A model generated the notes under the pieces. It did no database searches, was not told the origin of the DNA, and worked only from the letters and a program-made list of their open reading frames with translations. The position numbers and the translations under genes were made by a program. Shown one piece after another: positions 3,706-51,130 of a stretch of DNA of 64,000 nucleotides. Location: IMG/VR virus record IMGVR_UViG_3300030497_000001; one strand, written 5' to 3'. This stretch comes from a virus. How positions within the stretch are numbered: position 1 is the stretch's first letter; every line of letters begins with the position of its first letter.

Positions 3706-4584
3706 ATGATTAAAGTAAATGATAAGTTAGTAGAGTTTGAAACATTCCCCAATGGTGAAGCGTTGTTGGTGAAAGAGAGTTTACAAGGTAGTTTAAAAGA
3801 CGGAAGAGATAATGTTGTGCACTTCAAGTATGAAAATGATGCAGACTTAATCAAACTTATGTTTGTTAAGCAACATATCGACAGTCTTACAGGAATGTTT
3901 GATATGAAGATTGCCTTATACATATACTACATGCCTTATAGCAGAATGGATAGAAGCGAAAACTTATCTCCATTCACATTGAAACATGTTGCAAAACTTA
4001 TCAATGACTTAAAATTTAATCAAGTGTTTGTCATTGAACCTCACTCTGATGTTACTCCTGCTGTGCTAGATAGAGCAGAATCAGTATTTGTCAACTTTGA
4101 CTTAATCGAAAAGGTTAAAGAGGAAGTTGGGTTTGATGAGAACGAAGATTACATAATGTTTCCAGATGCAGGAGCATCCAAGCGTTATAGCAAGATGAAA
4201 GCTAAGAACGTTGCAATTGGTCACAAAGAACGAGATTTTGAAACTGGTAAAATCATAGGTTTCAATCTCATCTTGAATAACGGTCTGGCAACAGGAAATA
4301 AAGTTATCATCGTAGATGATATGACATCTTATGGTGGCACATTCGTACATAGTGCAAAAGCTCTTGCTGAAAAAGGGTTTGATGAGATTTACTTACTAGT
4401 TGCTCATGCAGAGAACAGCGTATTACATGGTAATCCAAAAACAGGAATCAACCTGTTTGACCATATCGACAAACTATTCACTACAGACAGTATTTTAACA
4501 GAGCACAACAATTGGGAGTTTAAGAAATTTGAACCACAATTGAAAATCTATAGTTTGGAGGATTATGTGAATGGGAAACTATGA
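3706..4584 (+). CDS. ribose-phosphate pyrophosphokinase family protein (Prs-like; candidate ADP-ribose diphosphokinase Adps of NARP1)
   Basis: PRPP-binding loop VIIVDDMTSYGGTF and overall Prs-like length. ATG at 3706 is preferred over 3688 because the GGGAGAG RBS sits 5 nt upstream. Confidence 0.8.
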   Translation: MIKVNDKLVEFETFPNGEALLVKESLQGSLKDGRDNVVHFKYENDADLIKLMFVKQHIDSLTGMFDMKIALYIYYMPYSRMDRSENLSPFTLKHVAKLINDLKFNQVFVIEPHSDVTPAVLDRAESVFVNFDLIEKVKEEVGFDENEDYIMFPDAGASKRYSKMKAKNVAIGHKERDFETGKIIGFNLILNNGLATGNKVIIVDDMTSYGGTFVHSAKALAEKGFDEIYLLVAHAENSVLHGNPKTGINLFDHIDKLFTTDSILTEHNNWEFKKFEPQLKIYSLEDYVNGKL

Positions 4585-4804
4585 AATCGGTGAGAAAGTA
4601 CGAATAGTCAGAGAGGTTTATGGTCATGGGTTTGAAATTGGCGAAACAGTAATTATCAAATCAATAGAGATAGAACCTTTCGATGGCAGTCTAAGCATCT
4701 TAGCCGTTACAGAAACAGATGATATCGGTTGGTGTTTAGGAGAAGAAGAGATTGAAAAAATAAATGATAGTTGGATTTTAGACCCATTAAAGGAGGAAGA
4801 ATAA
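4571..4804 (+). CDS. small SH3/KOW-like paralog A
   Basis: Motif G-E-x-V-x-I-V..GH-x-F-x-IGE-x-V-x-I ... D-x-W-x-L..EEI-x-x-I is shared with the next two ORFs. GGAGGA RBS. Confidence 0.7.
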   Translation: MGNYEIGEKVRIVREVYGHGFEIGETVIIKSIEIEPFDGSLSILAVTETDDIGWCLGEEEIEKINDSWILDPLKEEE

Positions 4805-4805
4805 T

Positions 4806-5003
4806 ATGTGGGAAGTTGGAGAAGTTGTGGAGATTATTGACGACTTAAATGGTCACATGTTTTATATTGGTCAACGTGTAAGAATTAGAGCGTTACATGA
4901 AAATGGTGACGTTGCTTCGGCAGAAAGCCTTGACGATAGTGAAGATTATTGGTTTCTCAACCAAGATGACATTAAGAAAATAGAAGAACAGGAGGAAGAA
5001 TAG
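4806..5003 (+). CDS. small SH3/KOW-like paralog B
   Basis: Same motif as paralog A. The junction AGGAGGAAGAATAATATG is nearly identical to the next junction. Confidence 0.7.
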   Translation: MWEVGEVVEIIDDLNGHMFYIGQRVRIRALHENGDVASAESLDDSEDYWFLNQDDIKKIEEQEEE

Positions 5004-38159: not shown

Positions 38160-38930
38160 TTAAAATCTGTATTTATTTTTAAATCTAAATTGGATTTCAC
38201 AAGCACCTGTGACTTTAAAGCGATTCTGACCATATACTAATCTTGGGAAATTGCCCACGATTTTGTCATATCTGTACACACCAATTATATCAGTTTCGAT
38301 AATCTCTTTTTCACAGTTGATATAAATATCTTCTGCATTTGTCAAATCTCTAACTTCAAATATATTACCTTTATCATCTAGACTTTCGATGGTTACTGTA
38401 CCTGCACCAGACTTCTTAATAGAAATCTCTGGGTACACATCAAAATGACTGTCGCTTGGTACTGTGATAGTTACAGGCGTTGTTGATACAGTTTGCTTTG
38501 TTGTAATAACATCTGGTGAATAAACTCTAGAAGAATCACATCTCATTTTGATTTTAAAATAGCCTTCGCTAAATCCTGTATGTACGATACTAGAATCATC
38601 AATTGGCATACAATAGAATACTCTATTTTCTTTACCTCTAAAGTATAAAGGCTTATAGTAATCTACCCATAACCATCTAATGATAGAATCAATTTTCGCA
38701 TCATCGAATTTACCTTCAAATGCGATTGTCATCTCAAATTCCAGAGGTGAGTTTTCGATACCATGTAGCATCGGTTTATCATTACCTCTGACTTTTGTCT
38801 CATTAATTTCTCTTGTGGCAACGAATGTTTCTTCAAACATTCCGCTATCTGTAACAACATTTACTAATTGAAATGTATCAGACCAGACACCATTGAAATT
38901 AAAATACAATTTATCCTTAATTGTTGGCAT
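38160..38930 (-). CDS. distal tail protein (Dit)
   Basis: Siphovirus tail-component-like N-terminus (F.FNG..S..F.L.......P......E..V.G.D). Positioned directly after the tape measure gene. Confidence 0.7.
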   Translation of the reverse strand: MPTIKDKLYFNFNGVWSDTFQLVNVVTDSGMFEETFVATREINETKVRGNDKPMLHGIENSPLEFEMTIAFEGKFDDAKIDSIIRWLWVDYYKPLYFRGKENRVFYCMPIDDSSIVHTGFSEGYFKIKMRCDSSRVYSPDVITTKQTVSTTPVTITVPSDSHFDVYPEISIKKSGAGTVTIESLDDKGNIFEVRDLTNAEDIYINCEKEIIETDIIGVYRYDKIVGNFPRLVYGQNRFKVTGACEIQFRFKNKYRF

Positions 38931-38974
38931 CCCTTTTCCTCCTTTAAATTAAAAAGAAAGGTGAAGGGAAGAGC

Positions 38975-41900
38975 CTAACGACCCTTCTTCTTCATACCTT
39001 TCATGATTTCGCCTGCGATAGCATCCGCTTTCTTCTTATCTCCACCTTCAACTGTTACATTGATGTCTCCATAAGATACGTTCACAATACTACCTGCTGT
39101 TGCAAGTTTACTGCTGATAGAGTTTCCGCTTAATGCAGGGATAACGTCTTTAACTTTTTCCATAATTTTAACTGCATCTAAAATATCTGATGTTTGGTTT
39201 TTGTTTAAGACAAGTTCTTTCTTATGTAGTAAAGCTAGTGCTCCTTCATTTGGCACATTATCACCAGTGTAACCACCAGTATCAAATGCCTTAATGTATT
39301 TCTTGTTTGCGTAACCTGTAGTTGTTCCTCTGTTATTAGAGAACTTAACTTTCCACCAATCTCCATCTTCACCTAAGATTTGTACGTTTGCACCATTTAA
39401 GATACGTCTTACTACTCCACCCTGTAAGTTTGGAGCGTTACGGATGTTTAAGTAGCTATCTGCTGTTACACCAGTTACGTTACCCTTAGTAGGCATTTGT
39501 GGTTGTGGTGTAGGTGGTTGTGGTTTTGTTGGTGGTGGTGGCTCTGGTGCAGGCTTCATTGGTCTTGCAGGGTCATCTGGGCGAAGAACCTCATTCTCAA
39601 ATGTTTGATAGCCTTTTGCTTTAAGAAGCTCATCCACGTTGTTCATTGGCTCTTTAGAGTTAAAGTCCATGTTGTCAACAACTAAGCCATTTGCTTCCGC
39701 AACTTGTTTCTTAGTTTCGTCAGAGAATCCACCGAATCCAGATGATAAACCATCAAAGATTCCTTTATTCATGTTGTCGATGTTTTGCTTCATTTTCGCT
39801 AACTCATCGGCAAGCTTTTTAAAGCTACCTTCGATAAATTGATTACGCATGTCTGCCCAATATTTATCGTTGTTTAATAAGTCATCGTATTGTTTAGTTA
39901 CGTCTTCTTTTTGTTTGTCAAGGTCACCGATTTTACCATCTAGTTCTTCTTGCTCTGTTTTCTTTTTGTTTTCGATTTCGTCTAGCTGTGCTTGTTTTTG
40001 GTCTTCAAGAGCTTGCTTCATTAATTCACGTTGACGTTCTTTTTGATATTCCGCTAGTTCTTTATCGACATCTGCTAGTTCCTTTTTAAGTTCCGCAAGT
40101 TTTTTCTTACCTTCAAGTGAATTATCTCTTGATAAAATGCTGATTTTATTTTGTAGTTCTGAACGTTTTGCATTCTTTTCGTCTAATCCTTTTTGGTAAT
40201 CTTCGTTTTCCTTCTCTTTGTCCATTTCTTTAAACTTAGCATCGTACACCTTGTTAATCTTGTCGATTTCCTTGTCGTACAGCTTCATCTTTTCGTCATG
40301 AGCTTTTTGAAGGTTGTTTTGTTCTTTTTCGATTGCATCTAATGCCATGTCCTTCATCTTACCGTAGTAATCTTTCAATTGACCAATACCATCATCTGCC
40401 ACGCTTGCACGTGTATCTTTAATCTCTTTTTCAGCTTGCAGAACTGCTAGAGTTGAATCCTCCCAAGCTTCTTTAACCTTGTCTACTTCCGCTCTGATAT
40501 CTTTGGCAACTTGGCTATCCTTACCGAATCTATCTTCTGCTTCATATAGTTTCAACATTAAATCTCTTTGTTGGTTCTCTAACTTAGCTCTTTCTTGTTT
40601 TAATTGATTTGCTTTATCAATATAAAGGTTCATCATTTTTGTCATGTTATCTGGGTCTACTAATTTAGCAACCTCAATCGCAAAGTCGATGTCATCTACT
40701 TTAGCTTTAATCTCTTCTAATCCTTTAGTATACTGTTCAACAATAGCTTCTACGTGAGCTTTTAAGATTTCCGCATAACGGTTTTCCCAATTGTCTAAGA
40801 AGTCTTGCCATTCAGCTCTCATACTTTGGATTGAGCTTAGATTGCTTTCGTATTCTTGCATTAACTTATTGTATTGGTCACGTTGCTCTTTTGTATGAGC
40901 GTTGATGTTTTTCAGACCTTCTAGTTCACGTTTGATTTGTTCGTTTCTACGTTCTTTATCCCATAGGTCGTGATTTAATAGTTCCCAACGTTTAATTTCA
41001 ACTTGGTATACATCGTTCATCATCTTGCGATATTCTGCTGTATACTTGTTCATGTTTTTCATTTTTGTTTCCATCCACTTGATTGTTACATCAAGCTCAC
41101 TCATGCTACGTTGCCATGAGTTCCAAGGCATTGCATCCGCTAACTTATCGCTATCATCTGCACTAGATTTGACTTTAGTATCTGAATAGAATGATTCTTT
41201 TACCCAACTTCCATCTTCTGTTTGGACGTATCCTTTTTTTCTTCTGTTAGGGTCAGTTCTATCATTTTCTGCAAAACTATCATCATAGCTACCTAAAGCA
41301 GTGAATACTCCCATTCTACCGTAAGAATCTAATCCACTGTAGATTGAAGGGATAAGTCTACCAGACGTACCGCTACCTCCACCTGCTGTTCCAGAATCAC
41401 CAGAACTTGCACTGAAAGCACCTGCCGCACTTGCTACTGCACTTGCTACCTCTCCACCTTGTAGTCCTGTAATGTTATTGATTGTAGACATATTCCAAGA
41501 TGCACCTGTTGGTAATGCAGGTAATGTTGGAGCTTTAACTTGAACGCTAGAAGCCTGTTGTGCTTTTGCGATATAGTTGTTTAGACTTGACATCGCACCT
41601 GCGATTGTGCTATTTAAACCTTGTACAGCAGATTTAGCTTGGTTAGCTGAATCCTTAACTTTGTTTAAAGCACTAGCTTGCGAATTGTGAGCACTGTTCA
41701 TAGCACCTGTAGAACTTGCAACTGCTCCTGCCATAGCACTGAATGCACCTCTAACAACATTCGCAATTGCCATTGTTCCTGTACCAAGAGATAATACTGC
41801 TTGTAAGTAAGTTTGGATTGCTTGAATGATTGATGAGATTGAGCTAATTGCAGATTGTGCCATTGAGCCATAAGCTTGTGACATTTGTTGCGTTGCATTG

Positions 41901-44900
41901 ATAGCTTGCATAATTGCATTAGCTTCTGCTTGTTTAGCGTTCGCATTAGCACTACTTGCTTGTGCCGAAGTGTTAGAAGCGTTAGCTTCATTTGATTTAG
42001 CATTAGCATTAGCACTTGATGCATCTGCTGATGCTCTAGAAGCATCTGATGCTTGGTTCATACCGACAGCAGATAAACTTGCTGAATTACCAAGTTGTTG
42101 CATCGCTTGACTAGCTGTTCCAGAAGCATTAGATATAGTGAATAATGCAACGCCAAATGACTCTGCTCCACTTACACCGCTTCCGAAGTTGTTGCTTAAT
42201 GTTGAAATAGCATTACCTACTTCTCCTGCTTTGCCAACTGTGTTACCCATAGCGTTTTGCAGTTCGCCTTGTTTAGCAATAAATGAATCAAATCCACTTA
42301 CTGTGTTTGCAATAGCTGTACCTGCATTTTGCATCGCTGTAGCTGTTTCTTGTGCTTTACCACCCATGCTACCCATTGACTGTACAACAGCATCCTGTGC
42401 TAGTTTGTATTGGTCTAATGCGTTTTTAGCGTTACCGATTGATGTAACATCTTGACCAATCTTTTGAGCACTTTGACCAGATTGAGTAGCCATACCTGCT
42501 ACTTGCTCTTGGAATAATTGTGCCTGTGTTTTAAATGGACTCATGAAGCCAGTCTGCATACCTTGACCTAATTGACCAAATGCAGTATTGATTCCACCAA
42601 CCTGTGTTTCAACTTGCGTTTTAGTTTCACCCATTGTAGTACCAACTTGGTTAAGGTTCTCTTTTAATGGTGCTAGGTTGTTTCCTGCGTTACCGATTGT
42701 AGATGTTGCTTGGCTGATTCCACCTGCTGATTCATTTGCCTTGCCTTTAGCTTCGTCAAATTTTTGTCCAACTTGGTCAGCTTGGTCTTTTACAGGACTC
42801 ATGTTTCCACCTGCGTTACCGATTCTGCCTGCACTCTGTTCAATGCTACCTGCTGATTCGCCTACTTTTTGAGCTGTTTCACCTGTCTTCTGACTAACTT
42901 CTCCAATCTTCAATCCGAATGGGTCGGCTAACGAACCTGCTAAACCGATTCTCATACCGCCTTGTTCGTATTGACCTGCCGTTAACGACATGTTATCTCC
43001 ACTTAGTTTTGCACTTTGTTGAAGTTGATTGAATGTTGTCATCAATGGATTCATGTATGTTCCAGAGTTACCAATTCTCATACCGTTAGTTTCGATACCT
43101 TGTGCACCCTTGATAGACTCTTCGGTAGTTTTTGCAAAGCCTTCTTTAATCTTGTTTAAGTTTTCGATTGTTGGAGACATGTTTATTTCTTTACCTAAAG
43201 AATTTTGAACTTTGTCAATAAATGTTTTAGCTTTGTTTCCTGTGTCATCTAACTTGTTACCAAATTCATCAAACTTGAATTTATTAGAATCAACTTTACC
43301 ACTGAAAATATCAGTAGCTTCTCCACTCTCACGCATCTTACCTACCCATGCTTCGAATGTTGCGATTTGGTCTTTCGTCATGCTACCGTAGTCCACAACT
43401 ACTTTACCGTTTTCGTCAATTTTTGTTTTTACTTGACCCATTGTGTCAGCTAGTTTATAATACTTATCAATGTTTTGTTCGATTTCGCCACGTGATACAC
43501 CGAATCTATTAGATAATTCTGTAACAGATTTACCCCATTGTTCTGTCTTTGTAGCGTTTTCACCGTACATCAATTGAGACATTTTCAAGCTTTCAAGATG
43601 ACCCTTGATTGCTGAAACTTCTTCGTTCTTATATCCATATAATGTTTTCTGTAAGTCGATAGCTTCAACCATTTTTTGGTTAGCTTTACCCTGTGCATCT
43701 GCCTGTTTGTTGATAGCATCCGCACTCTTACCTGTAGCATCTGCTCCTTCACCTACAGCATCCGCATAACCTGCGTTAGCTTCTTCACCTGCACGTGCTT
43801 TTAGAGCTTGGTTTTCACTAGCCATAGCTAATTGTTGAACGAAGTCTTTAGCTTCATTTGCAGACATACCTAGCTTTTCAGCGTAAGCAACATATCCATC
43901 CCAACCTTGACTACCGTTTTGTTGAATTTCCATTCCTAGTGCCAATAACTCTTTTAACTTGCTTTGCATCTTATCAATGCTACCGCCAAAGTTTTCAATG
44001 TTCATGAATCTTTCTGGGACTGTGCTACCAATTTTACCAATAGCTTGTTTAAGTTCTTCTACTTTTTGTTTACCTTTGTTTGTGCTAGTGTCGATTCCTG
44101 CTGTCATTCTGTCGAACTCTTTAGCGAATAGCTCACCAACACCTGCTCCACCCTTTACGATGTTATCCATAGCTTTCTTAATGTTGTCTGCACCCTTGAT
44201 TGCACCAGATGCGATTTTCTCATTTAAAGAGTTTGTATTAACTTTCATGAAGTTATCCACTGCTTTTTGAGCACCGTCACCTAGTTTAGCCATAGCACCG
44301 CTTGCTTCTAAAGTTGCTCTAGCTTGCTCTGTTAATGTATGGTTAATCTTCTGGAATGCTTCTTGTCGTTTTGATGCGTTTTGAAGTTCTTTAACATCTA
44401 AGTCTAGAATCTTCTTCTTATAAGCTTCTTCACGTTCTTCTCTTGATTGAGATGCAGTAGGTCTATTACGGAACTCTTCTGCTTCTTTTCGTTTTTGAAG
44501 TAGTTTTTCTTCTGCTTCAATTAGTTTACCGATGTCTTCTGTTGCTTTGTCTAAGTTTTGGTCTTTCATTGCAACTTGCTCTCTAGCTTTAGCTTCTGAA
44601 AGTTCTTTAGACATTTGTAGAGCTTTCTTAACTTCGTCTGTGTTCTTCAACCATGCTTGACCGTTAGCATCAATGAATTTTACAGAAGTTGGTAAGATTT
44701 CAGCTAGTTTAGATTGTACGATTAAGAATTGGTCATATTCCTGCGTTCCCTTTTGGATTGCTCCACTTGCAAAGGCTTTACTCATTGCATCGTATTTCTC
44801 AACTAGACCTCCAACTGTATCCATGTTTTTACGGTATCCGTCTACCATTTTTTGCGTAGCTCTATCTACCGCTTCTTGTTCTGCTTTTAACTTAGAGAAA

Positions 44901-47900
44901 TGACCGATTACAGCTTCAATAGCCCAACCGATTGCACCGATAGCAAGACCGAATGCACCCATTGATAATACAGCTTTACCAAAGCTTAAACCGAATGATA
45001 GAACTGATTTACCTGCATTCATGAATGCTCCACCAACAGTTGTTGTTGCAGTACCAGTATTCTGCATACCGCTACGCATTCTATCCATTACTGTGATAGT
45101 AGCATTACCATCTCTTTGTACGCTTGTGAAACCTTCTTTAAACTTGCTAAAGAACCCACCGACAGCAGTTTGAATACCACCGAATTTACCCATTTGGGTC
45201 ATGATTGCACCGATAGCAACACCAACTAGAGCTAGACCTCCACCTGCATTAGCAATCTGTGTGATAACGTTTAATACCGCACCTAAACCTTGTGCTACAG
45301 CAATGATACCGTCAGACACGAATGCCTTACCGAATGCTACAGACATAGTTGTGAATGAGTTTTTCGTTTGATTGATTTTAGCTTCCATAGACTGCATATA
45401 CTTCTCGTTCTCACGCATTGCACTACCTTGTGAGTTATATGCTGTTACAGTTGCTTTAATCGCTGTTGGGTAGTTATTCATTAGGGCTAAGAAACGTGTT
45501 AAGTGGTTTCGTCCTGCTAATGTAACTGCTGTGTTCTGTCTTTGTTGAGCTGTTAAGCCACCCCAATTTGCACCTAAGTCATTTAGGATATCGCCAACAG
45601 GTCTTAGCTCTTTACCATTTTCACCCATGTCATACATTGCAACACCAACACTTTTCAGTGTTCCTTCCGATGCTTGTAAACCTGTGATACGTGAGTAAAT
45701 AGCCTTTAATGAGTTACCGATAATGTTACCAGATTCCATTGTTACCGCACCGATTGCAGTTGTATGTCCAATAGTTTCTTCCAAGCTAACTCCATATGTT
45801 TTTGCAGTAGATGCAGATTTTTGTAAACTTGTTGCTAACTGTTGCGTACTGATAGCGTAATCATTATCTACTTGGTTTAATTTATCTACGATACCGATAG
45901 AATCTTCTGCTTCAATATTGAATGCGTTCATTGTACCTACTAGAGATGCTTGTGCATCTTGTACTTTTAGGTCTGATACGTTTGACATTACTGTAGCTGT
46001 CTTAGTGATAGCTGTTAACTGTCTTTCATTGAAGTCACCGAATGTACGTGAGAACTCTTCCATACCGTTTAGGATATCATGAATATTGTTACCTAATTCT
46101 TTTGACAATCCTACTGCGTTTCCAAACATGATATCTGTGTTAAGACTTGCATCTGCAACTCTTCGAATGTTTGTCATAGCTTTGTCTACTTCTAGAATCT
46201 CTCTAGTCATAGCTTGTAAGCCTTGAATTGGAGCAGTCATCATAGCTTGACTTAGCATCCACATTGGAGCTGATGACATCATGCTACGTAGTTTTTCCCA
46301 TGCACCTAAGTTACGGTTAACGTTACGAACCATTTCGTCAGAAGCCTGTCTAACAACGTTAGTTCCTTGTGTAAATGATAGATTCATACGTCTTACGTGT
46401 TCACCTGTACCTGCAAATGTAACTTGAACGTTTTTCATTCTGTTACCCATTGCATCTACGCCATCTCTAGCGAATGATACAGAAGCTACTTTAGCACCTT
46501 CTACAGCACTAACATAACTTTTAATACTTGCAATCGTATTTGCATCTGGTGCTCCACCGCTAAATAACTTTTGGTTCATTTGTTTAATCTTGTCTGCACC
46601 ACCGTATTTGTCAGAAATATCTTCACCTAAACGAAGGTTTCTTTCTGCATTACGGATTTGTTGTTTCTTGTCTGTTAGCATTCTTTGGTATTGAGCTAAC
46701 GCACGTTCTACCTCTACAGCACTAGTATTTACATTTTTAGCGTAATTCTTTAGTGATGCATCAATGCCAGTAACATCCATTCCTCTGTCTTTCATTTGAC
46801 GTTGAACGGCTTTTAAACTCTCAATTAATCTTTGAGACTTAGCTTGCTCTGCATCCATCCAAGCATTAGTTTTCGCTTCACCAATTCTATTTCTAACAAT
46901 AGCTAATTGAGAATAAGCTTTATTCATATCATTGATTGTTGCAATGTTACGAACCATTGCCATTGTCTCATCAACGAATGCCTTTTTCGCTTGACCGTTT
47001 GGATTATTTGCAGGAGTTTGTTGTTGAAGTTTTCTTAACTCACGCTCTAATTGTAAACGTTGTTTAGTAACTTCTTGCGATGCTTTCATATCAGCATTGC
47101 CTTTTCTAACGTTTTCATTATATACTTGAACTTCTCTAGCAAGTTGTCTATAATGATTTGCCAAATCTGCAACAGCCTTACCATCTCTATCTGTGCCGTT
47201 TTTCGCCATAGATTCAAGACCTTTAAGTTGAGCATTGTTAACATCTTTAGCTCTAGCTTTACCGATGTCATTTAACAACTTAGCTTGTTGAGCTGTTAAC
47301 TTGTTTGTTTGAGAGATTTGTTGTTGTAATTGTTGTTCTGCTCTTACAGCTTCTTGAAGACCTTTAACCATGTCTCTAGTTAAGCTATCTCCTTTGCCTT
47401 TTAACGCATCGAATTGAGAAAGCAGTCCAATCTTGCCATCTGTGTTTTTAAGTTGGTTAATAGAGCCTTTAAGCTTGTTTAAAGAAGCTTCTGCTTGTGC
47501 CAGACTCTTTTGAGTGTCTGTAATAGTTTGTCTATCAATGATTTGAAACTTCTTGCTACCTGCATTCCAGTCATATCTAAGTTTCTCAACAACACCATTT
47601 GCACGTTGTAGTTCTGCAACGAAACCTTTTAGATTTCCTTGTGCATCTTTAAATTGAGTTGTTTTAAAGATACCGCCACCATCGTTAAATTTAGAACGAA
47701 GGACTCTCTCTGCATCTTCCATTTGCTTCAAATATTGTTTGATATTATTGAAGTTGCCTACAGGTGCAGAAGTAGGAACGCTCTGCTTCTGTGCAGAAGA
47801 TGCAATCTTACTTGCTTGTTGCTGTGCTTGCTTAGTTTGTTGCACATATTTTTTATTCATATCGTTGAAAGCTTTATACATATCCTGTATTTGCTTTGTA

Positions 47901-48148
47901 GTGCCTTTTGTATCAAGCTCTACTTTCAACTTCATTGGTTTGTTTTTTACTAAATTATTGATACTAGTAATCTGCTTGTTGATATCTTTTGTATCTAGTT
48001 TAACTTTAAGTTTTACTGGATTACCTGCTAACATCTTGCTAATAGCATTTACCTGTGAAGGCAACTTACTACCTTTTGCATCAAGCTCTACCTTTAACTT
48101 CACCACTTGGGCTTTCAGTATCATATTTAAATCGTTACTACCTGCCAA
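38975..48148 (-). CDS. tail tape measure protein (3057 aa) with C-terminal Pro-rich linker + SH3b-like domain
   Basis: TP901-type TMP core (..MTNIRRVADAS.., hydrophobic Gly/Ala-rich TM-like segments), long coiled coils and repeat arrays. TTG start 7 nt after GGGGTGA. Confidence 0.9.
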   Translation of the reverse strand: MAGSNDLNMILKAQVVKLKVELDAKGSKLPSQVNAISKMLAGNPVKLKVKLDTKDINKQITSINNLVKNKPMKLKVELDTKGTTKQIQDMYKAFNDMNKKYVQQTKQAQQQASKIASSAQKQSVPTSAPVGNFNNIKQYLKQMEDAERVLRSKFNDGGGIFKTTQFKDAQGNLKGFVAELQRANGVVEKLRYDWNAGSKKFQIIDRQTITDTQKSLAQAEASLNKLKGSINQLKNTDGKIGLLSQFDALKGKGDSLTRDMVKGLQEAVRAEQQLQQQISQTNKLTAQQAKLLNDIGKARAKDVNNAQLKGLESMAKNGTDRDGKAVADLANHYRQLAREVQVYNENVRKGNADMKASQEVTKQRLQLERELRKLQQQTPANNPNGQAKKAFVDETMAMVRNIATINDMNKAYSQLAIVRNRIGEAKTNAWMDAEQAKSQRLIESLKAVQRQMKDRGMDVTGIDASLKNYAKNVNTSAVEVERALAQYQRMLTDKKQQIRNAERNLRLGEDISDKYGGADKIKQMNQKLFSGGAPDANTIASIKSYVSAVEGAKVASVSFARDGVDAMGNRMKNVQVTFAGTGEHVRRMNLSFTQGTNVVRQASDEMVRNVNRNLGAWEKLRSMMSSAPMWMLSQAMMTAPIQGLQAMTREILEVDKAMTNIRRVADASLNTDIMFGNAVGLSKELGNNIHDILNGMEEFSRTFGDFNERQLTAITKTATVMSNVSDLKVQDAQASLVGTMNAFNIEAEDSIGIVDKLNQVDNDYAISTQQLATSLQKSASTAKTYGVSLEETIGHTTAIGAVTMESGNIIGNSLKAIYSRITGLQASEGTLKSVGVAMYDMGENGKELRPVGDILNDLGANWGGLTAQQRQNTAVTLAGRNHLTRFLALMNNYPTAIKATVTAYNSQGSAMRENEKYMQSMEAKINQTKNSFTTMSVAFGKAFVSDGIIAVAQGLGAVLNVITQIANAGGGLALVGVAIGAIMTQMGKFGGIQTAVGGFFSKFKEGFTSVQRDGNATITVMDRMRSGMQNTGTATTTVGGAFMNAGKSVLSFGLSFGKAVLSMGAFGLAIGAIGWAIEAVIGHFSKLKAEQEAVDRATQKMVDGYRKNMDTVGGLVEKYDAMSKAFASGAIQKGTQEYDQFLIVQSKLAEILPTSVKFIDANGQAWLKNTDEVKKALQMSKELSEAKAREQVAMKDQNLDKATEDIGKLIEAEEKLLQKRKEAEEFRNRPTASQSREEREEAYKKKILDLDVKELQNASKRQEAFQKINHTLTEQARATLEASGAMAKLGDGAQKAVDNFMKVNTNSLNEKIASGAIKGADNIKKAMDNIVKGGAGVGELFAKEFDRMTAGIDTSTNKGKQKVEELKQAIGKIGSTVPERFMNIENFGGSIDKMQSKLKELLALGMEIQQNGSQGWDGYVAYAEKLGMSANEAKDFVQQLAMASENQALKARAGEEANAGYADAVGEGADATGKSADAINKQADAQGKANQKMVEAIDLQKTLYGYKNEEVSAIKGHLESLKMSQLMYGENATKTEQWGKSVTELSNRFGVSRGEIEQNIDKYYKLADTMGQVKTKIDENGKVVVDYGSMTKDQIATFEAWVGKMRESGEATDIFSGKVDSNKFKFDEFGNKLDDTGNKAKTFIDKVQNSLGKEINMSPTIENLNKIKEGFAKTTEESIKGAQGIETNGMRIGNSGTYMNPLMTTFNQLQQSAKLSGDNMSLTAGQYEQGGMRIGLAGSLADPFGLKIGEVSQKTGETAQKVGESAGSIEQSAGRIGNAGGNMSPVKDQADQVGQKFDEAKGKANESAGGISQATSTIGNAGNNLAPLKENLNQVGTTMGETKTQVETQVGGINTAFGQLGQGMQTGFMSPFKTQAQLFQEQVAGMATQSGQSAQKIGQDVTSIGNAKNALDQYKLAQDAVVQSMGSMGGKAQETATAMQNAGTAIANTVSGFDSFIAKQGELQNAMGNTVGKAGEVGNAISTLSNNFGSGVSGAESFGVALFTISNASGTASQAMQQLGNSASLSAVGMNQASDASRASADASSANANAKSNEANASNTSAQASSANANAKQAEANAIMQAINATQQMSQAYGSMAQSAISSISSIIQAIQTYLQAVLSLGTGTMAIANVVRGAFSAMAGAVASSTGAMNSAHNSQASALNKVKDSANQAKSAVQGLNSTIAGAMSSLNNYIAKAQQASSVQVKAPTLPALPTGASWNMSTINNITGLQGGEVASAVASAAGAFSASSGDSGTAGGGSGTSGRLIPSIYSGLDSYGRMGVFTALGSYDDSFAENDRTDPNRRKKGYVQTEDGSWVKESFYSDTKVKSSADDSDKLADAMPWNSWQRSMSELDVTIKWMETKMKNMNKYTAEYRKMMNDVYQVEIKRWELLNHDLWDKERRNEQIKRELEGLKNINAHTKEQRDQYNKLMQEYESNLSSIQSMRAEWQDFLDNWENRYAEILKAHVEAIVEQYTKGLEEIKAKVDDIDFAIEVAKLVDPDNMTKMMNLYIDKANQLKQERAKLENQQRDLMLKLYEAEDRFGKDSQVAKDIRAEVDKVKEAWEDSTLAVLQAEKEIKDTRASVADDGIGQLKDYYGKMKDMALDAIEKEQNNLQKAHDEKMKLYDKEIDKINKVYDAKFKEMDKEKENEDYQKGLDEKNAKRSELQNKISILSRDNSLEGKKKLAELKKELADVDKELAEYQKERQRELMKQALEDQKQAQLDEIENKKKTEQEELDGKIGDLDKQKEDVTKQYDDLLNNDKYWADMRNQFIEGSFKKLADELAKMKQNIDNMNKGIFDGLSSGFGGFSDETKKQVAEANGLVVDNMDFNSKEPMNNVDELLKAKGYQTFENEVLRPDDPARPMKPAPEPPPPTKPQPPTPQPQMPTKGNVTGVTADSYLNIRNAPNLQGGVVRRILNGANVQILGEDGDWWKVKFSNNRGTTTGYANKKYIKAFDTGGYTGDNVPNEGALALLHKKELVLNKNQTSDILDAVKIMEKVKDVIPALSGNSISSKLATAGSIVNVSYGDINVTVEGGDKKKADAIAGEIMKGMKKKGR
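42400..43100 (-). repeat. array of about 5 degenerate ~40-aa repeats inside the TMP (x-IGNAG-x-N-x-x-P-x-K...Q-x-G)
   Basis: RIGNSGTYMNPL, RIGLAGSLADPF, RIGNAGGNMSPVK, TIGNAGNNLAPLK, SIGNAKNALDQYK. Boundaries are approximate. Confidence 0.6.
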
Positions 48149-48171
48149 ATTGTTTCACCCCTTGTTATTCT

Positions 48172-48224
48172 AGAGGATGCTGTAACATCCTAATCAGAAG
48201 ATTAAGATGTTACTCTTAATCTTC
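48172..48224. repeat. cluster of three overlapping inverted repeats including a 28-bp 11-6-11 palindrome
   Basis: IR1: GAAGATTAAGA-TGTTAC-TCTTAATCTTC (48197-48224). IR2: GTAACATCCTAATC / GATTAAGATGTTAC (48182-48195 / 48200-48213). IR3: AGGATG / CATCCT (48174-48179 / 48186-48191). Confidence 0.9.
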
Positions 48225-49202
48225 CTAATATAAATCGTCATCATCGTCATCGTCATCACGAACGACATATATCTCTGTTGTTGAAACATCGTTGTGTCCC
48301 AACATTTCTTGTACCTTTTTGATATCTATACCTTCCTCAACAACTGCTATAGTTGCTCTACTTGAACGTAATAAGTGAGGATGGATTTTCTTGCCGATGA
48401 TTTCACCGAACTCTTCACACCATAGATTGAAAGCGTTTCCGCTAATCTGTCTATATCCATCTTTTGTTTTACTAACAAATAGATATGGACAATCATCTTC
48501 GCCACGTACTTCTATCCACTTTCTAAGTGCATCCATTACTTCTTGACTAAATTTGAATTTACGAACTTTTCCTTCTATGCCTTTACCTTTTGCTCTAATA
48601 GCATGAGTTTGGTAATATTCTTTCTGGATGCCTTTCTTATTAACAAATTTATCGTAAGTTACAACTTCTTTTAATAATTGTCTTGACTCTTCCCTACGAC
48701 ATCCTGTACCATATGTATATAAGAGATAAGCTAGTTTCTGCCATTCCTCTTTTTTCTTCAAAGTCTTGATGAGCTTTTCAAGCTCAATCTTCGTAATTGG
48801 ATTCTTCTCTTTTTTCTTCACATTTGCCACGTTAGGAACTGCCTTATTGAAAATGTTTTTTAATTTTGGATATTCTTCACCATAATATAATTCTATGAAA
48901 TTGTATAAAGAACTAACAGATGAACGCTTGAATTTAATAGCAGAACTACTCAACCCTAATTTTATTAGGTCGTTCTGATAATCTAATCCATCACGTATCT
49001 TTAAATCTGTGATTCTCTTTCTACCTCTATATTTATCATGTGCCCATTTGCAAAAGATACGTAGAGATGATTTGTATTGTTTTAGAGTTGCAGGACTTAG
49101 ATGACCCTGTTTAAGAAAGCTTTCAACTATCTCTCTATCATCTATGTCAAATTCATTATCCCAAAACTCATCTGTAACTTCTTGTATTTTTTTGTATGCC
49201 AT
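48225..49202 (-). CDS. tyrosine recombinase (XerC/D / phage integrase family) with poly-Asp C-terminal tail
   Basis: Catalytic pattern: R in GTGCRREE, K in IRAKGKG, HPHLLRSSRAT (H-x-x-R), LGHNDVSTTEIY (H/W...Y). N-terminal SAM-like core-binding domain. Ends RDDDDDDDDLY. ATG at 49202 is preferred over the GTG at 49211. Confidence 0.85.
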   Translation of the reverse strand: MAYKKIQEVTDEFWDNEFDIDDREIVESFLKQGHLSPATLKQYKSSLRIFCKWAHDKYRGRKRITDLKIRDGLDYQNDLIKLGLSSSAIKFKRSSVSSLYNFIELYYGEEYPKLKNIFNKAVPNVANVKKKEKNPITKIELEKLIKTLKKKEEWQKLAYLLYTYGTGCRREESRQLLKEVVTYDKFVNKKGIQKEYYQTHAIRAKGKGIEGKVRKFKFSQEVMDALRKWIEVRGEDDCPYLFVSKTKDGYRQISGNAFNLWCEEFGEIIGKKIHPHLLRSSRATIAVVEEGIDIKKVQEMLGHNDVSTTEIYVVRDDDDDDDDLY

Positions 49203-49217
49203 ATATTTCACCTACTT

Positions 49218-49700
49218 CTATTTATAAGCTTGACCGCTCCATTGGATATCTAAGAATACTTTTTTATTTCTAACGTTGTTGTACTCTGATTGAACTTGAC
49301 CTAGATAGTCGAATCCACCTTTGTATGTAAAATTTGGAACTACTCCAATTCTGTTTTCCAATTTCTTAGAGTGCCAACCGCTACTAATAAGCATGATTGA
49401 GTGACCTTTTGGCTGTCCTTTGCCAAATACTGAATCATGATACATTAGACCGTTTTCGAATGTAAGTTCGATTGTATAAGTATTCACACCAACTTTTCTT
49501 ACTGGTTTAAGCTTTATACCCTTTTCTGAACGTCCAGTACGAACGTACATTTGAGGTTGATAGCTACCCAAGTATCTTCTCCATACTTTGAGTGCTATCG
49601 CTTTTAATTTTTTTCCCTCTGCATTTAAGACTCTAATAGCTTCCGCTTCTGTCTCAAAGTAAAAACCATTACTCTTGCTCTGTGATTGCTTCTTCGCCAT
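49218..49700 (-). CDS. basic protein of unknown function (possible chaperone T-like extension or independent tail protein)
   Basis: ORF overlaps the 3' end of the chaperone gene by 32 nt, in the +1 frame. Its ATG is immediately preceded in frame by TAG. Confidence 0.55.
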   Translation of the reverse strand: MAKKQSQSKSNGFYFETEAEAIRVLNAEGKKLKAIALKVWRRYLGSYQPQMYVRTGRSEKGIKLKPVRKVGVNTYTIELTFENGLMYHDSVFGKGQPKGHSIMLISSGWHSKKLENRIGVVPNFTYKGGFDYLGQVQSEYNNVRNKKVFLDIQWSGQAYK

Positions 49701-50190
49701 CTATAAACATCTTCTTAACTACTTCGTTCTCTAGCTGTTCTGCAACTAGGTCTGCTTCGGCTTGTGCGATTTCCATCTTTTCAGTCATTTCGTTAAGCAC
49801 ATTTCTCAATTTGTCATATGTCTGAATAACTTCTTTTTCTGGAAGTTCATTTAAGACCGCTTCGAAAATTCCAAGGTCGATTAAAGAATGTAGATGTGCG
49901 ATAGCATCATCGAAATCATCTGGAATCTCTAAGTCTGTGAAATGCTTGATTAATAGTAAAGACGTATAAGGCGTAGCAAGTTCTAGTAATTCAATACGTT
50001 TACCGCCCTCTTGGAAGAATGCAATCATATCATCTAAAACTTTACCTTGTTTAGAAGTACGGAACACCTCATCAATTTTCACTTCGTAGACATCATCACC
50101 AATTGAAACATATGCTTCGAATTGCTTATTTAATTTTTCATCCTGTTTTTTCAACTCATCAAGAGTTAATTTTTTAATATCCTTAGTCAC
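49669..50190 (-). CDS. tail assembly chaperone (gpG-like)
   Basis: Acidic 173-aa protein encoded between the major tail gene and the TMP. GTG start 8 nt after AAGGAG. Confidence 0.55.
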   Translation of the reverse strand: MTKDIKKLTLDELKKQDEKLNKQFEAYVSIGDDVYEVKIDEVFRTSKQGKVLDDMIAFFQEGGKRIELLELATPYTSLLLIKHFTDLEIPDDFDDAIAHLHSLIDLGIFEAVLNELPEKEVIQTYDKLRNVLNEMTEKMEIAQAEADLVAEQLENEVVKKMFIDGEEAITEQE

Positions 50191-50365: not shown

Positions 50366-51130
50366 TTATAGACGAATGATGTCGTATAATTTGTTTGTTC
50401 CTGCTTCTACTAGGATATCTAGAGTGAAGTCGAACGTAGATACGTTTTCAGCATCCATTGTTAGTGAGAAGTTAGATTGTAATTTCGCTTTTGGAATTAC
50501 GAATTGCATCTTACGGTCAACACCGTCTTCTCCACGAACGATTGTATCTCCAACTACTTTGTATGTAGCAGGGAATGCAGAACCGTTGAAAGTTACTTGT
50601 GTAGCATCTTGTGCTGTAACTGTGTACTCATAGAATACCATGATTTGTTCGTTTTCTGCTACATCTCCACCAGTTGCGATTTTTAAAGTTTTCTTGTCAG
50701 TGCCATCTTGTGTAACACCTGTTACTTCTTGACCCATAACACCTTTGTCTACTTTGTAAACTGCTACAGTGTTCATAGCTAATGGTTCTTCTTTAAGAGT
50801 AACTTTAACTCCTGCTGTTGCATCTTTAACTGCTGTTAATACTTCACGTCCTACTGCTTTGATACCTGTAGTTTTTACTGTAGTACCTGCTAGTAAGCTT
50901 AAAGAAATATCAGATAGTAAAGCATCTTGCATTGTTAATGTAGCTTTACGTCCGAAGTCCCAAGATAATAGACGACCATTACCTTGTCCACCTGTTGCTT
51001 CTGCACTGTCACTTTCGTTCTCAATTGTTGATACTTTTAATGTATCAAAGAATAATACTGGTTTGTTAGTTGCAACATCGAAAAAGATAACGTTTGCAAC
51101 CTCTTTCATACCATAACGCTTGTTTGCCAT
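50366..51130 (-). CDS. major tail (tube) protein
   Basis: 254-aa beta-rich protein with an AGGAGG RBS. Positioned before the chaperone gene and followed by a strong terminator. Confidence 0.65.
   Translation of the reverse strand: MANKRYGMKEVANVIFFDVATNKPVLFFDTLKVSTIENESDSAEATGGQGNGRLLSWDFGRKATLTMQDALLSDISLSLLAGTTVKTTGIKAVGREVLTAVKDATAGVKVTLKEEPLAMNTVAVYKVDKGVMGQEVTGVTQDGTDKKTLKIATGGDVAENEQIMVFYEYTVTAQDATQVTFNGSAFPATYKVVGDTIVRGEDGVDRKMQFVIPKAKLQSNFSLTMDAENVSTFDFTLDILVEAGTNKLYDIIRL

Follow-up and report, generated by a model that had tools for sequence, protein, structure and literature searches.

A palindrome between the recombinase and tape measure genes of Bacillus Tyroviruses as one hairpin of a probable two-state mRNA leader

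This report concerns a 28-bp palindrome in a 64-kb stretch of viral DNA (IMG/VR record IMGVR_UViG_3300030497_000001, called the window here), which belongs to a Bacillus "Tyrovirus", a Kirov/Thrax/PBC2-like siphovirus of ~165 kb. The palindrome lies in the 76-nt spacer between the gene for an Xer-like tyrosine recombinase, a homologue of Tyrovirus gp50, and the gene for the tape measure protein (TMP); the genes around it are on the minus strand. From comparison of relatives and modelling of the folded RNA we think it fairly probable that the palindrome forms one hairpin (H1) of a conserved leader of the late mRNA that can adopt two states and would gate the ribosome-binding site of TMP. The comparative evidence favours a structure in the mRNA over a double-stranded DNA site of the lox or dif type. 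The RNA-switch interpretation of the element appears to be new, while the palindrome itself and its interpretation as a phage attachment site (attP) are already in the literature.

A first-pass annotation had described three nested inverted repeats in this spacer and had offered two explanations for them, a lox/dif-like recombination core site and an attenuator-like RNA switch. All of its statements about the sequence itself hold. A repeat search recovered the 11-6-11 inverted repeat adjoining the recombinase stop codon (48197-48224), the arms of which (48197-48207 and 48214-48224) are 100% complementary with 6 nt between them, as well as a second inverted repeat of 14 nt (48182-48195 / 48200-48213) with 13 of 14 positions (93%) complementary. 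The third repeat, AGGATG/CATCCT, is present at 48174-48179 / 48186-48191, and the heptamer TC[CT]TAAT is repeated as described. The lone mismatch of the 14-nt repeat becomes a G·U pair solely in minus-strand RNA, which has the sense of the mRNA, and folding of the sense strand makes use of the 14-nt helix while folding of the antisense strand does not. The heptamer recurs because segment 2 of the leader must pair with both segment 1 and segment 3, as set out below.

The leader would span the region from the stop codon of the upstream open reading frame (ORF), normally that of the gp50 recombinase, to the TMP start, and would consist of five consecutive segments that pair only with their neighbours (Table 1). 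Segment 1 occupies nt 3-13 counted after the first nucleotide of the stop codon. H1, the palindrome, is formed by segments 1 and 2. H2 pairs the H1 loop and the 5' part of segment 2 with segment 3; in this alternative fold the loop meets UGUUAC at 48182-48187, and in the window the helix has 14 bp, including one G·U, and a predicted energy of -18.8 kcal/mol. H3 is formed by segments 3 and 4, and H4 by segment 4 and the TMP Shine-Dalgarno sequence. H1 is compatible with H3 and H2 with H4, and the two combinations, termed state A (H1+H3) and state B (H2+H4), are mutually exclusive. In state A, segment 4 is held by a decoy within segment 3, which is purine-rich and resembles a Shine-Dalgarno sequence; locking the anti-Shine-Dalgarno segment onto this decoy would leave the TMP ribosome-binding site open. 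In state B, segment 4 (CAUCCUCU) pairs with AAGGGGUG, so that the TMP ribosome-binding site itself would be paired.

Table 1. Features of the recombinase-TMP junction in the window
Feature	Coordinates	Strand	Comment
Xer-like tyrosine recombinase gene, Tyrovirus gp50 homologue, 328 aa	48225-49211	-	ORF, Pfam
Recombinase stop codon TAG	48227-48225	-	
Segment 1 (GAAGAUUAAGA), 5' arm of H1	48214-48224	-	Follows the stop codon without a gap; an extra G·U pair is possible with the G of UAG
H1 loop GUAACA (6-bp spacer of the palindrome)	48208-48213	-	Alternatively the outer part of the H2 5' arm
Segment 2 (UCUUAAUCUUC), 3' arm of H1	48197-48207	-	5' part (48200-48207) also in the H2 5' arm
Segment 3 (GAUUAGGAUGUUAC), 3' arm of H2	48182-48195	-	Middle (48185-48191) is the 5' arm of H3
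Segment 4 (GCAUCCUCU), anti-Shine-Dalgarno	48172-48180	-	3' arm of H3 or 5' arm of H4
TMP Shine-Dalgarno sequence (AAGGGGUGA)	48155-48163	-	7 nt upstream of TTG; paired with segment 4 in the minimum free energy (MFE) fold
TMP gene, 3057 aa, 9.2-kb cistron	38975-48148	-	TTG start at 48148-48146

The region is 85-90% identical to that of Bacillus phages Kirov, Thrax1, Thrax3 and PBC2 (siphoviruses of 165-169 kb), and an IMG/VR contig encodes a recombinase 100% identical to that of the window and has the same leader sequence. In the five closest phages the ~56 nt that follow the stop codon vary at a single loop base, compared with differences of 10-15% in the flanking genes. More distant leaders were taken from relatives of the recombinase, which are encoded by 292 IMG/VR stretches; the best 80 of these were kept as L011-L090, and further loci are numbered L005-L010. 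Each of 18 distinct homologous leaders accommodates all four helices; in 16 of these variants the H1 stem and the stop codon overlap, and in one more they are adjacent. When the helices are tabulated in the correct register, canonical pairs make up 97% of H1, 95% of H2 and 95% of H3, and the column pairs with changes on both sides number 7 of 11, 9 of 14 and 6 of 7, respectively. The observed canonical counts were reached by none of 2000 column shuffles. On the alignment of state B (A5), 93% of cells are paired, a figure reached by 4 of 500 shuffles; within the H2 core the paired fraction is 97.9%, and both sides have changed in 3 of 11 pairs. On the state A alignment (A6), which is partly misaligned, 6 pairs are changed on both sides, and 0 of 500 shuffles reach either its paired percentage or its covariation score. 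The automated value for H1 and H3 (84.6% paired) understates the register-correct 95-97%, because both MAFFT and covariance-model alignments misplace segments 1 and 4 in the FADO group. RNAalifold independently predicts H2 and part of H4.

The changes extend across more than one helix at a time. The H1 loop covaries with the 3' part of segment 3, the paired sequences being GUAACA/UGUUAC, UACACCC/GGGUGUA, GUAUCACUC/GGGUGAUAU and GCAAUAC/GUAUUGC; in C30-3 this pairing reads GUAGCA/UGUUGC, through two transitions that both give G·U pairs. At position k=-3 a four-way change is seen (segment 1 A>G, segment 2 U>C, segment 3 A>G and segment 4 U>C), the intermediates of which, in L012, L020, BcoS136 and L032, are G·U pairs, and in L038 position k=+2 is altered in all three partners. 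The 1:2 / 2:3 / 3:4 switch that the annotation had put forward as its second explanation is thus supported, in that H1, H2 and H3 covary and the two states are nearly isoenergetic (see below), and it can be extended by H4, the helix of segment 4 with the Shine-Dalgarno sequence, which was found in 18 of 18 variants at -5 to -11 kcal/mol.

One locus shows what becomes of the element when its upstream neighbour changes. In L013, the recombinase and TMP genes are separated by an inserted GIY-YIG homing endonuclease gene (3999-4946, plus strand), whose product matches two Pfam families, GIY-YIG (1.4e-09) and HNH_repeat (PF18780, the homing endonuclease associated repeat; 1.6e-18). The start of the endonuclease gene overlaps the recombinase stop (TGATG) and its own stop codon, UAA, sits in the base of H1; the element remains at the TMP start, ~950 nt from the recombinase. 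Among distant relatives, L045 (3970-4026, plus strand) and L052 (3970-4009, plus strand) have non-homologous leaders in which an anti-Shine-Dalgarno sequence pairs with the TMP Shine-Dalgarno sequence, and L029 (3988-4054, plus strand) combines a terminator-like hairpin with an alternative pairing of the 2:3 type. The presence of unrelated leaders at the same junction suggests convergent control of TMP.

The departures from Watson-Crick pairing distinguish between the strands. On the coding strand, the non-Watson-Crick cells comprise 46 G·U and 2 A·C, and the column pairs with a G·U number 17 versus 2 with an A·C (binomial p = 7e-4). In 20 of 20 leaders the sense strand gives the more stable fold of the two strands, and scores from covariance model R1 are 54-97 bits for the sense strand versus 23-37 bits for the antisense strand. 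Such strand-asymmetric mismatches argue against a protein-bound DNA palindrome, the decay of which should yield both mismatch types equally. We are highly confident that selection has acted on an RNA structure of the sense strand.

The predicted energies of the two states lie close together. Expressed as sums for state A/state B in kcal/mol, they are -22.3/-24.2 in the window, -20.2/-20.1 in pW2, -24.5/-24.6 in L020, -26.9/-27.1 in FADO and -26.0/-25.4 in L032, so that in several variants the states are no more than 1 kcal/mol apart. The MFE fold of the whole leader is H2+H4 in most variants, and the leader of the window has a z-score of -3.7. Barriers between the states calculated by findpath are 9-22 kcal/mol (16.8/18.3 in the window). 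Near-equal energies combined with a high barrier point to a kinetic two-state switch. In the window, the predicted probability that the Shine-Dalgarno sequence is unpaired is 0.33 at equilibrium, 0.08 when nt 1-15 are masked and 0.50 when H1 is forced. Across the variants the accessibility is 0.04-0.54 at equilibrium and rises to 0.4-0.8 with H1 forced in 12 of 18; with the first 12-15 nt masked, it falls or stays low.

These observations can be assembled into a tentative sequence of events. The nascent RNA would fold into state A, the on state, because among the local hairpins H1 is transcribed first and H3 next. A ribosome that terminates on the upstream ORF would then melt H1, since the stop codon lies in the H1 base and segment 1 has about the length of the downstream ribosome footprint; the footprint of a terminating ribosome corresponds approximately to the stretch that segment 1 covers. 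H2 starts 11-18 nt after the first stop nucleotide, just beyond this presumed ribosome-covered stretch. Once freed, segment 2 would take segment 3, and segment 4 would be released onto the Shine-Dalgarno sequence, by which TMP initiation would be shut off or reduced. A kinetic switch of this kind would set the initiation frequency of the 9.2-kb, low-copy TMP cistron. We infer TMP translation as the output, the direction of the effect and the ribosomal trigger from the helices, covariation, strand specificity, energetics and stop codon placement that are observed. That the terminating ribosome is the trigger seems to us a possibility short of an even chance. Somewhat more doubtful is a strand-displacement relay through all five segments, in which each termination event would flip a trapped on fold (H1+H3) to the stable off fold (H2+H4); the same degree of doubt attaches to the consequence that TMP might be initiated in a brief window, on young or poorly translated mRNAs, and that negative coupling might set tail-protein stoichiometry. 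A bolder version of the relay would have the same sequence double as a DNA site for gp50.

Several points weigh against a gate of this kind. All of the energies are nearest-neighbour predictions, and the model is built wholly on computation. H4 taken alone covaries weakly, with 0 pairs changed on both sides, and its registers differ, as GGGGUG-type and GGAG-type Shine-Dalgarno sequences pair differently. The use of per-sequence helices derived from RNAfold, the fitting of the covariance-model alignments to the structure and the phylogenetic relatedness of the sequences all inflate the apparent support. With H1 forced, the Shine-Dalgarno sequence is still largely paired in FADO, PK-3, L046 and L051, and in BcoS136 it is likewise not freed, so that a simple logic in which state A equals on is not universal. 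H1 is weak in L015/Skywalker (-5.5 kcal/mol) and in L046 (-6.9 kcal/mol), and as Skywalker is an isolated phage, H1 appears to be dispensable for growth. Since leaders of the FADO type, L046 and L051 are partly paired in both states and phages with a weak H1 are viable, the element would act as a tuner and not as an absolute gate. It is also biologically counter-intuitive that upstream translation should turn TMP off. Finally, the palindrome of an RNA hairpin is a palindrome in the DNA as well, and a dual role is possible.

A competing explanation is that the 11-6-11 repeat is a core site in double-stranded DNA, resembling attP, dif or lox, at which the adjacent gp50 would bring about integration, cyclisation or the resolution of plasmid-prophage dimers. 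It was proposed in print in 2022, when the palindrome was described as a putative attP of the recombinase gp50 in the Tyroviruses (PMC9703825). The same paper reports weaker conservation of the site among phages of B. subtilis and B. cohnii, and argues that the position of gp50 in the structural module, common to Lactococcus 949-type phages, speaks against a role in lysogeny (PMC9703825). We found no RNA interpretation of the palindrome there or in the Kirov and Tsamsa papers, and no follow-up in the literature searched. The geometry is perfect in the window, Kirov, Thrax1/3 and PBC2, and the site adjoins a recombinase that retains catalytic-type motifs and resembles the single recombinase XerA. 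Tyroviruses also carry plasmid-maintenance genes, and two FADO-like genomes of 162-166 kb have been deposited as Bacillus plasmids. However, among recombinases at least 57% identical the geometry varies, with an H1 loop of 3, 4, 5, 6, 7 or 8 nt, bulges in one arm in pW2, C30-3 and L015, and an arm mismatch in Tsamsa; the arm differences are of the G·U type on one strand only, and the supposed spacer covaries with a downstream segment. Furthermore, the Lactococcus 949-type phages, which are virulent and whose recombinase is ~60% identical, lack the element and have an unstructured spacer of 17 nt. The element is likewise missing from L019 and L033-35, which have spacers of 21-24 nt (the recombinases of these loci, with the 949 group included, are 56-60% identical), and L021/26 and L029 have unrelated leaders that form hairpins. 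The covariance model detected no copy of the element within ±3 kb in the 949-type, L019, L033-35, L021/26 and L029 loci. These phages thus keep the recombinase and do without the palindrome, an outcome that the annotation had itself named as counting against its proposal; in L013 the two lie ~950 nt apart, and an attP at this position would split the tail operon upon integration. Nor was a partner site found: the window contains the palindrome only once even when up to 3 mismatches are allowed, and its half-sites are not enriched there. A search for a host attB with the exact 7-6-7 core in 185,579 species-representative genomes, one per species, gave 5 matches, none of them in Bacillus, and all 5 are AT-rich, terminator-like hairpins followed by T-runs. 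No prophage split at the site was seen, the recombinase-TMP junction being intact in both plasmid records, although this is a weak test. The core-site explanation of the first-pass annotation is accordingly not borne out by comparison, and we regard it as quite unlikely; the comparative tests remove the comparative support for a gp50 site and do not disprove that gp50 acts there. In phages without the palindrome the substrate of the recombinase must lie elsewhere.

Three further explanations were weighed. A processing or stability element, either a target of the RNase III type in H2 or a barrier to exonucleases, could split the transcript between its recombinase and TMP parts or give the two parts different stabilities, in the manner of lambda sib acting on int. 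It would account for conserved, strand-specific helices immediately 3' of the recombinase stop codon, for a near-perfect 14-bp duplex in H2, and for the other stable hairpins that distant relatives have at the same place, some of them terminator-like (L029, L063, L021). Yet it leaves unexplained why three to four mutually exclusive helices are retained, why the TMP Shine-Dalgarno sequence is constantly involved in the last of them and why the stop codon lies in the H1 base, and we consider it improbable. A transcription attenuator of the trp-leader kind, with H3 (or H1) as terminator, H2 as antiterminator and H1 as anti-antiterminator, has the same 1:2 / 2:3 / 3:4 topology, and a U-rich stretch does follow H3 in Tsamsa (UUUAGAUUUU) and L051 (UUUUUGGAUUUU). 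In the window and its close relatives, however, H3 is followed by CUAGAAUAAC and H1 by UGAUUAGG, neither of which is a U-tract; the stems in the window are A+U-rich, with no U-tract after H1, H2 or H3, and U-richness after H3 is not conserved among the variants. A terminator scan found none in the spacer, although it detected the terminator at 50346-50320. A transcriptional attenuator is thus very unlikely, and of the annotation's term attenuator-like only the translational sense can be kept. As for a chance palindrome without function, the repeat is the sole perfect 11-bp inverted repeat with a spacer of 3-8 nt in the window, and dinucleotide-shuffled windows contain on average 0.22 such repeats, with at least one in 11 of 60 shuffles. 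The palindrome by itself is therefore not strongly beyond chance. What goes beyond chance, judged from sequence comparison, is its conservation in the close phages, where it is invariant although the phages are 85-90% identical elsewhere, together with covariation across the 18 variants in more distant relatives; these data refute chance, to which we assign practically no weight.

If the leader is a translational switch, it has several parallels. In erm-type leaders (ermC/ermB of Firmicutes), a ribosome on segment 1 is the trigger, a downstream Shine-Dalgarno sequence is occluded or exposed, and there is no terminator. The element described here likewise consists of consecutive segments with mutually exclusive hairpins (1:2 + 3:4 versus 2:3) and lacks a terminator; its output would again be occlusion or exposure of a downstream Shine-Dalgarno sequence, and a ribosome on segment 1 is again the proposed trigger. 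The erm leader ribosome stalls on a short leader peptide, whereas here it would terminate a 328-aa ORF (in L013, the homing endonuclease ORF), with no drug or ligand implied. A relay step is also added, as segment 4 is an anti-Shine-Dalgarno and not a Shine-Dalgarno sequence, and the predicted sign is therefore inverted relative to erm, a ribosome on segment 1 turning expression off. There is no sequence homology between the two. The trp operon attenuator shares the 1:2 / 2:3 / 3:4 pairing, read out through where a ribosome stands with respect to segment 1 and a stop codon, but in the window no U-tract follows 3:4 and the conserved end point is the Shine-Dalgarno pairing, H4.

Retroregulation of int by lambda sib also involves a conserved RNA hairpin just downstream of a phage tyrosine recombinase gene. 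The sib element acts through RNase III cleavage and decay of the int mRNA; here, the network reaches the Shine-Dalgarno sequence of the next gene and there is no sign of processing. Translational coupling of the MS2/Qβ type resembles our proposal in that translation of an upstream cistron alters a structure controlling a downstream ribosome-binding site in a polycistronic phage mRNA. Classical coupling is positive and opens the downstream site, whereas the odd-step relay predicts closing, or a one-shot window on nascent RNA. Ribosome-mediated refolding between cistrons has been treated in a biophysical model (PMC4538824) and a review (PMC12548453). With Xer/dif (XerA-dif, XerS-difSL, XerH-difH) and Cre/loxP the palindrome of the window shares inverted 11-bp arms, a 6-bp spacer and a position beside a recombinase gene. 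It differs from them in that homologous phages do not preserve its geometry and arm symmetry, the searches yielded no partner site, and the element is absent from recombinase-bearing 949-type phages and follows the TMP start when a gene is inserted.

A putative attP published for a widespread group of Bacillus anthracis/cereus phages would on this evidence be re-assigned to a function at the RNA level, and the search for the substrate of an unexplained, conserved tail-module recombinase should turn elsewhere. The leader would also be a natural RNA relay of several steps, compact and with good covariation, that ends on a Shine-Dalgarno sequence and whose apparent trigger is an ordinary ORF stop codon, not a leader peptide. 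If the ribosome does turn TMP off, this would be an unusual case of negative translational coupling, exerted over an extremely long, low-copy structural protein.

Other signals in and around the spacer were considered and rejected. The sole promoter-like match (48256-48227) scores 9/12, lies in coding sequence and is not conserved in Tsamsa, and the counts of matches equal those in shuffles. Readthrough joining the recombinase to TMP was rejected, a second in-frame stop codon lying 3 codons on, as was a frameshift fusion, for which the TMP frame is closed 6 codons upstream of the TTG and no conserved slippery site is present. A bypass of the gene 60 type lacks matching take-off and landing codons. 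A leader peptide could be encoded in segments 3-4 by AUG UUA CAG CAU CCU CUA GAA UAA; this ORF is not conserved, the FADO equivalent being GUG UAG. No Rfam 15 family matched the leader, the best score being 19.4 bits (E = 0.95) versus a gathering score of 70.

The recombinase matches Pfam Phage_integrase (1.3e-21) and has an N-terminal SAM-like domain, and its closest solved structures are XerA 4a8e (2.7e-15), XerA 5hxy and XerD 1a0p. Across 7 recombinase homologues there is no variation in the catalytic-type motifs TGCRRE, HPHLLR, LGH and IY. Homologues 56-67% identical lie directly upstream of TMP in Tsamsa, FADO, pW2, BcoS-136 and the Lactococcus 949-type phages, and the recombinase-TMP junction is syntenic in every giant siphovirus examined; the TMP homologue is annotated as tape measure in Kirov, Thrax1/3 and PBC2. 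An intact-looking Xer-like recombinase is thus found just upstream of TMP from Bacillus Tyroviruses to virulent Lactococcus 949-type phages. In all of the homologues the C-terminus of the recombinase (48228-48260, minus strand, in the window) is an acidic tail closed by an aromatic or hydrophobic residue, examples being DDDDDDDDLY, SDIDELYD, DDMDDLYE and DEIDALF. It resembles the C-terminal protein-interaction tail of SSB. The two deposited plasmids mentioned above, PLSDB records NZ_CP076118.1 and NZ_CP106792.1, are 162-166 kb 'plasmids' of B. amyloliquefaciens and B. subtilis that represent FADO-like Tyrovirus genomes. Such records could reflect either a plasmid-prophage state or phage carried along in the culture.

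Further upstream of the recombinase, two ORFs on the minus strand (49669-50190 and 49218-49700) overlap by 32 nt (49669-49700), the second being in the +1 frame relative to the first; neither has a Pfam match. Siphoviruses usually encode frameshifted tail-assembly chaperones at this position. Directly after the major tail protein gene (50366-51130) lies the classical intrinsic terminator at 50346-50320 (minus strand), with an 11-bp stem, 5 G-C pairs and a T-run, and downstream of it is a promoter-like site with an extended -10 element at 50289-50261 (minus strand). Terminator and promoter-like site together probably constitute a transcriptional step-down ahead of the chaperone-recombinase-TMP block. 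At the other end of this block, in the leader of the gene that follows the TMP stop codon (38923-39003, minus strand), the pyrimidine stretch CCCUUCACCUUUCUUUU pairs with the Shine-Dalgarno sequence AAAGGAGGAAAAGGG of that gene, and the same leader gives a weak match to the covariance model (20.9 bits, E = 0.1). Sequestration of the Shine-Dalgarno sequence may be common in this tail operon.

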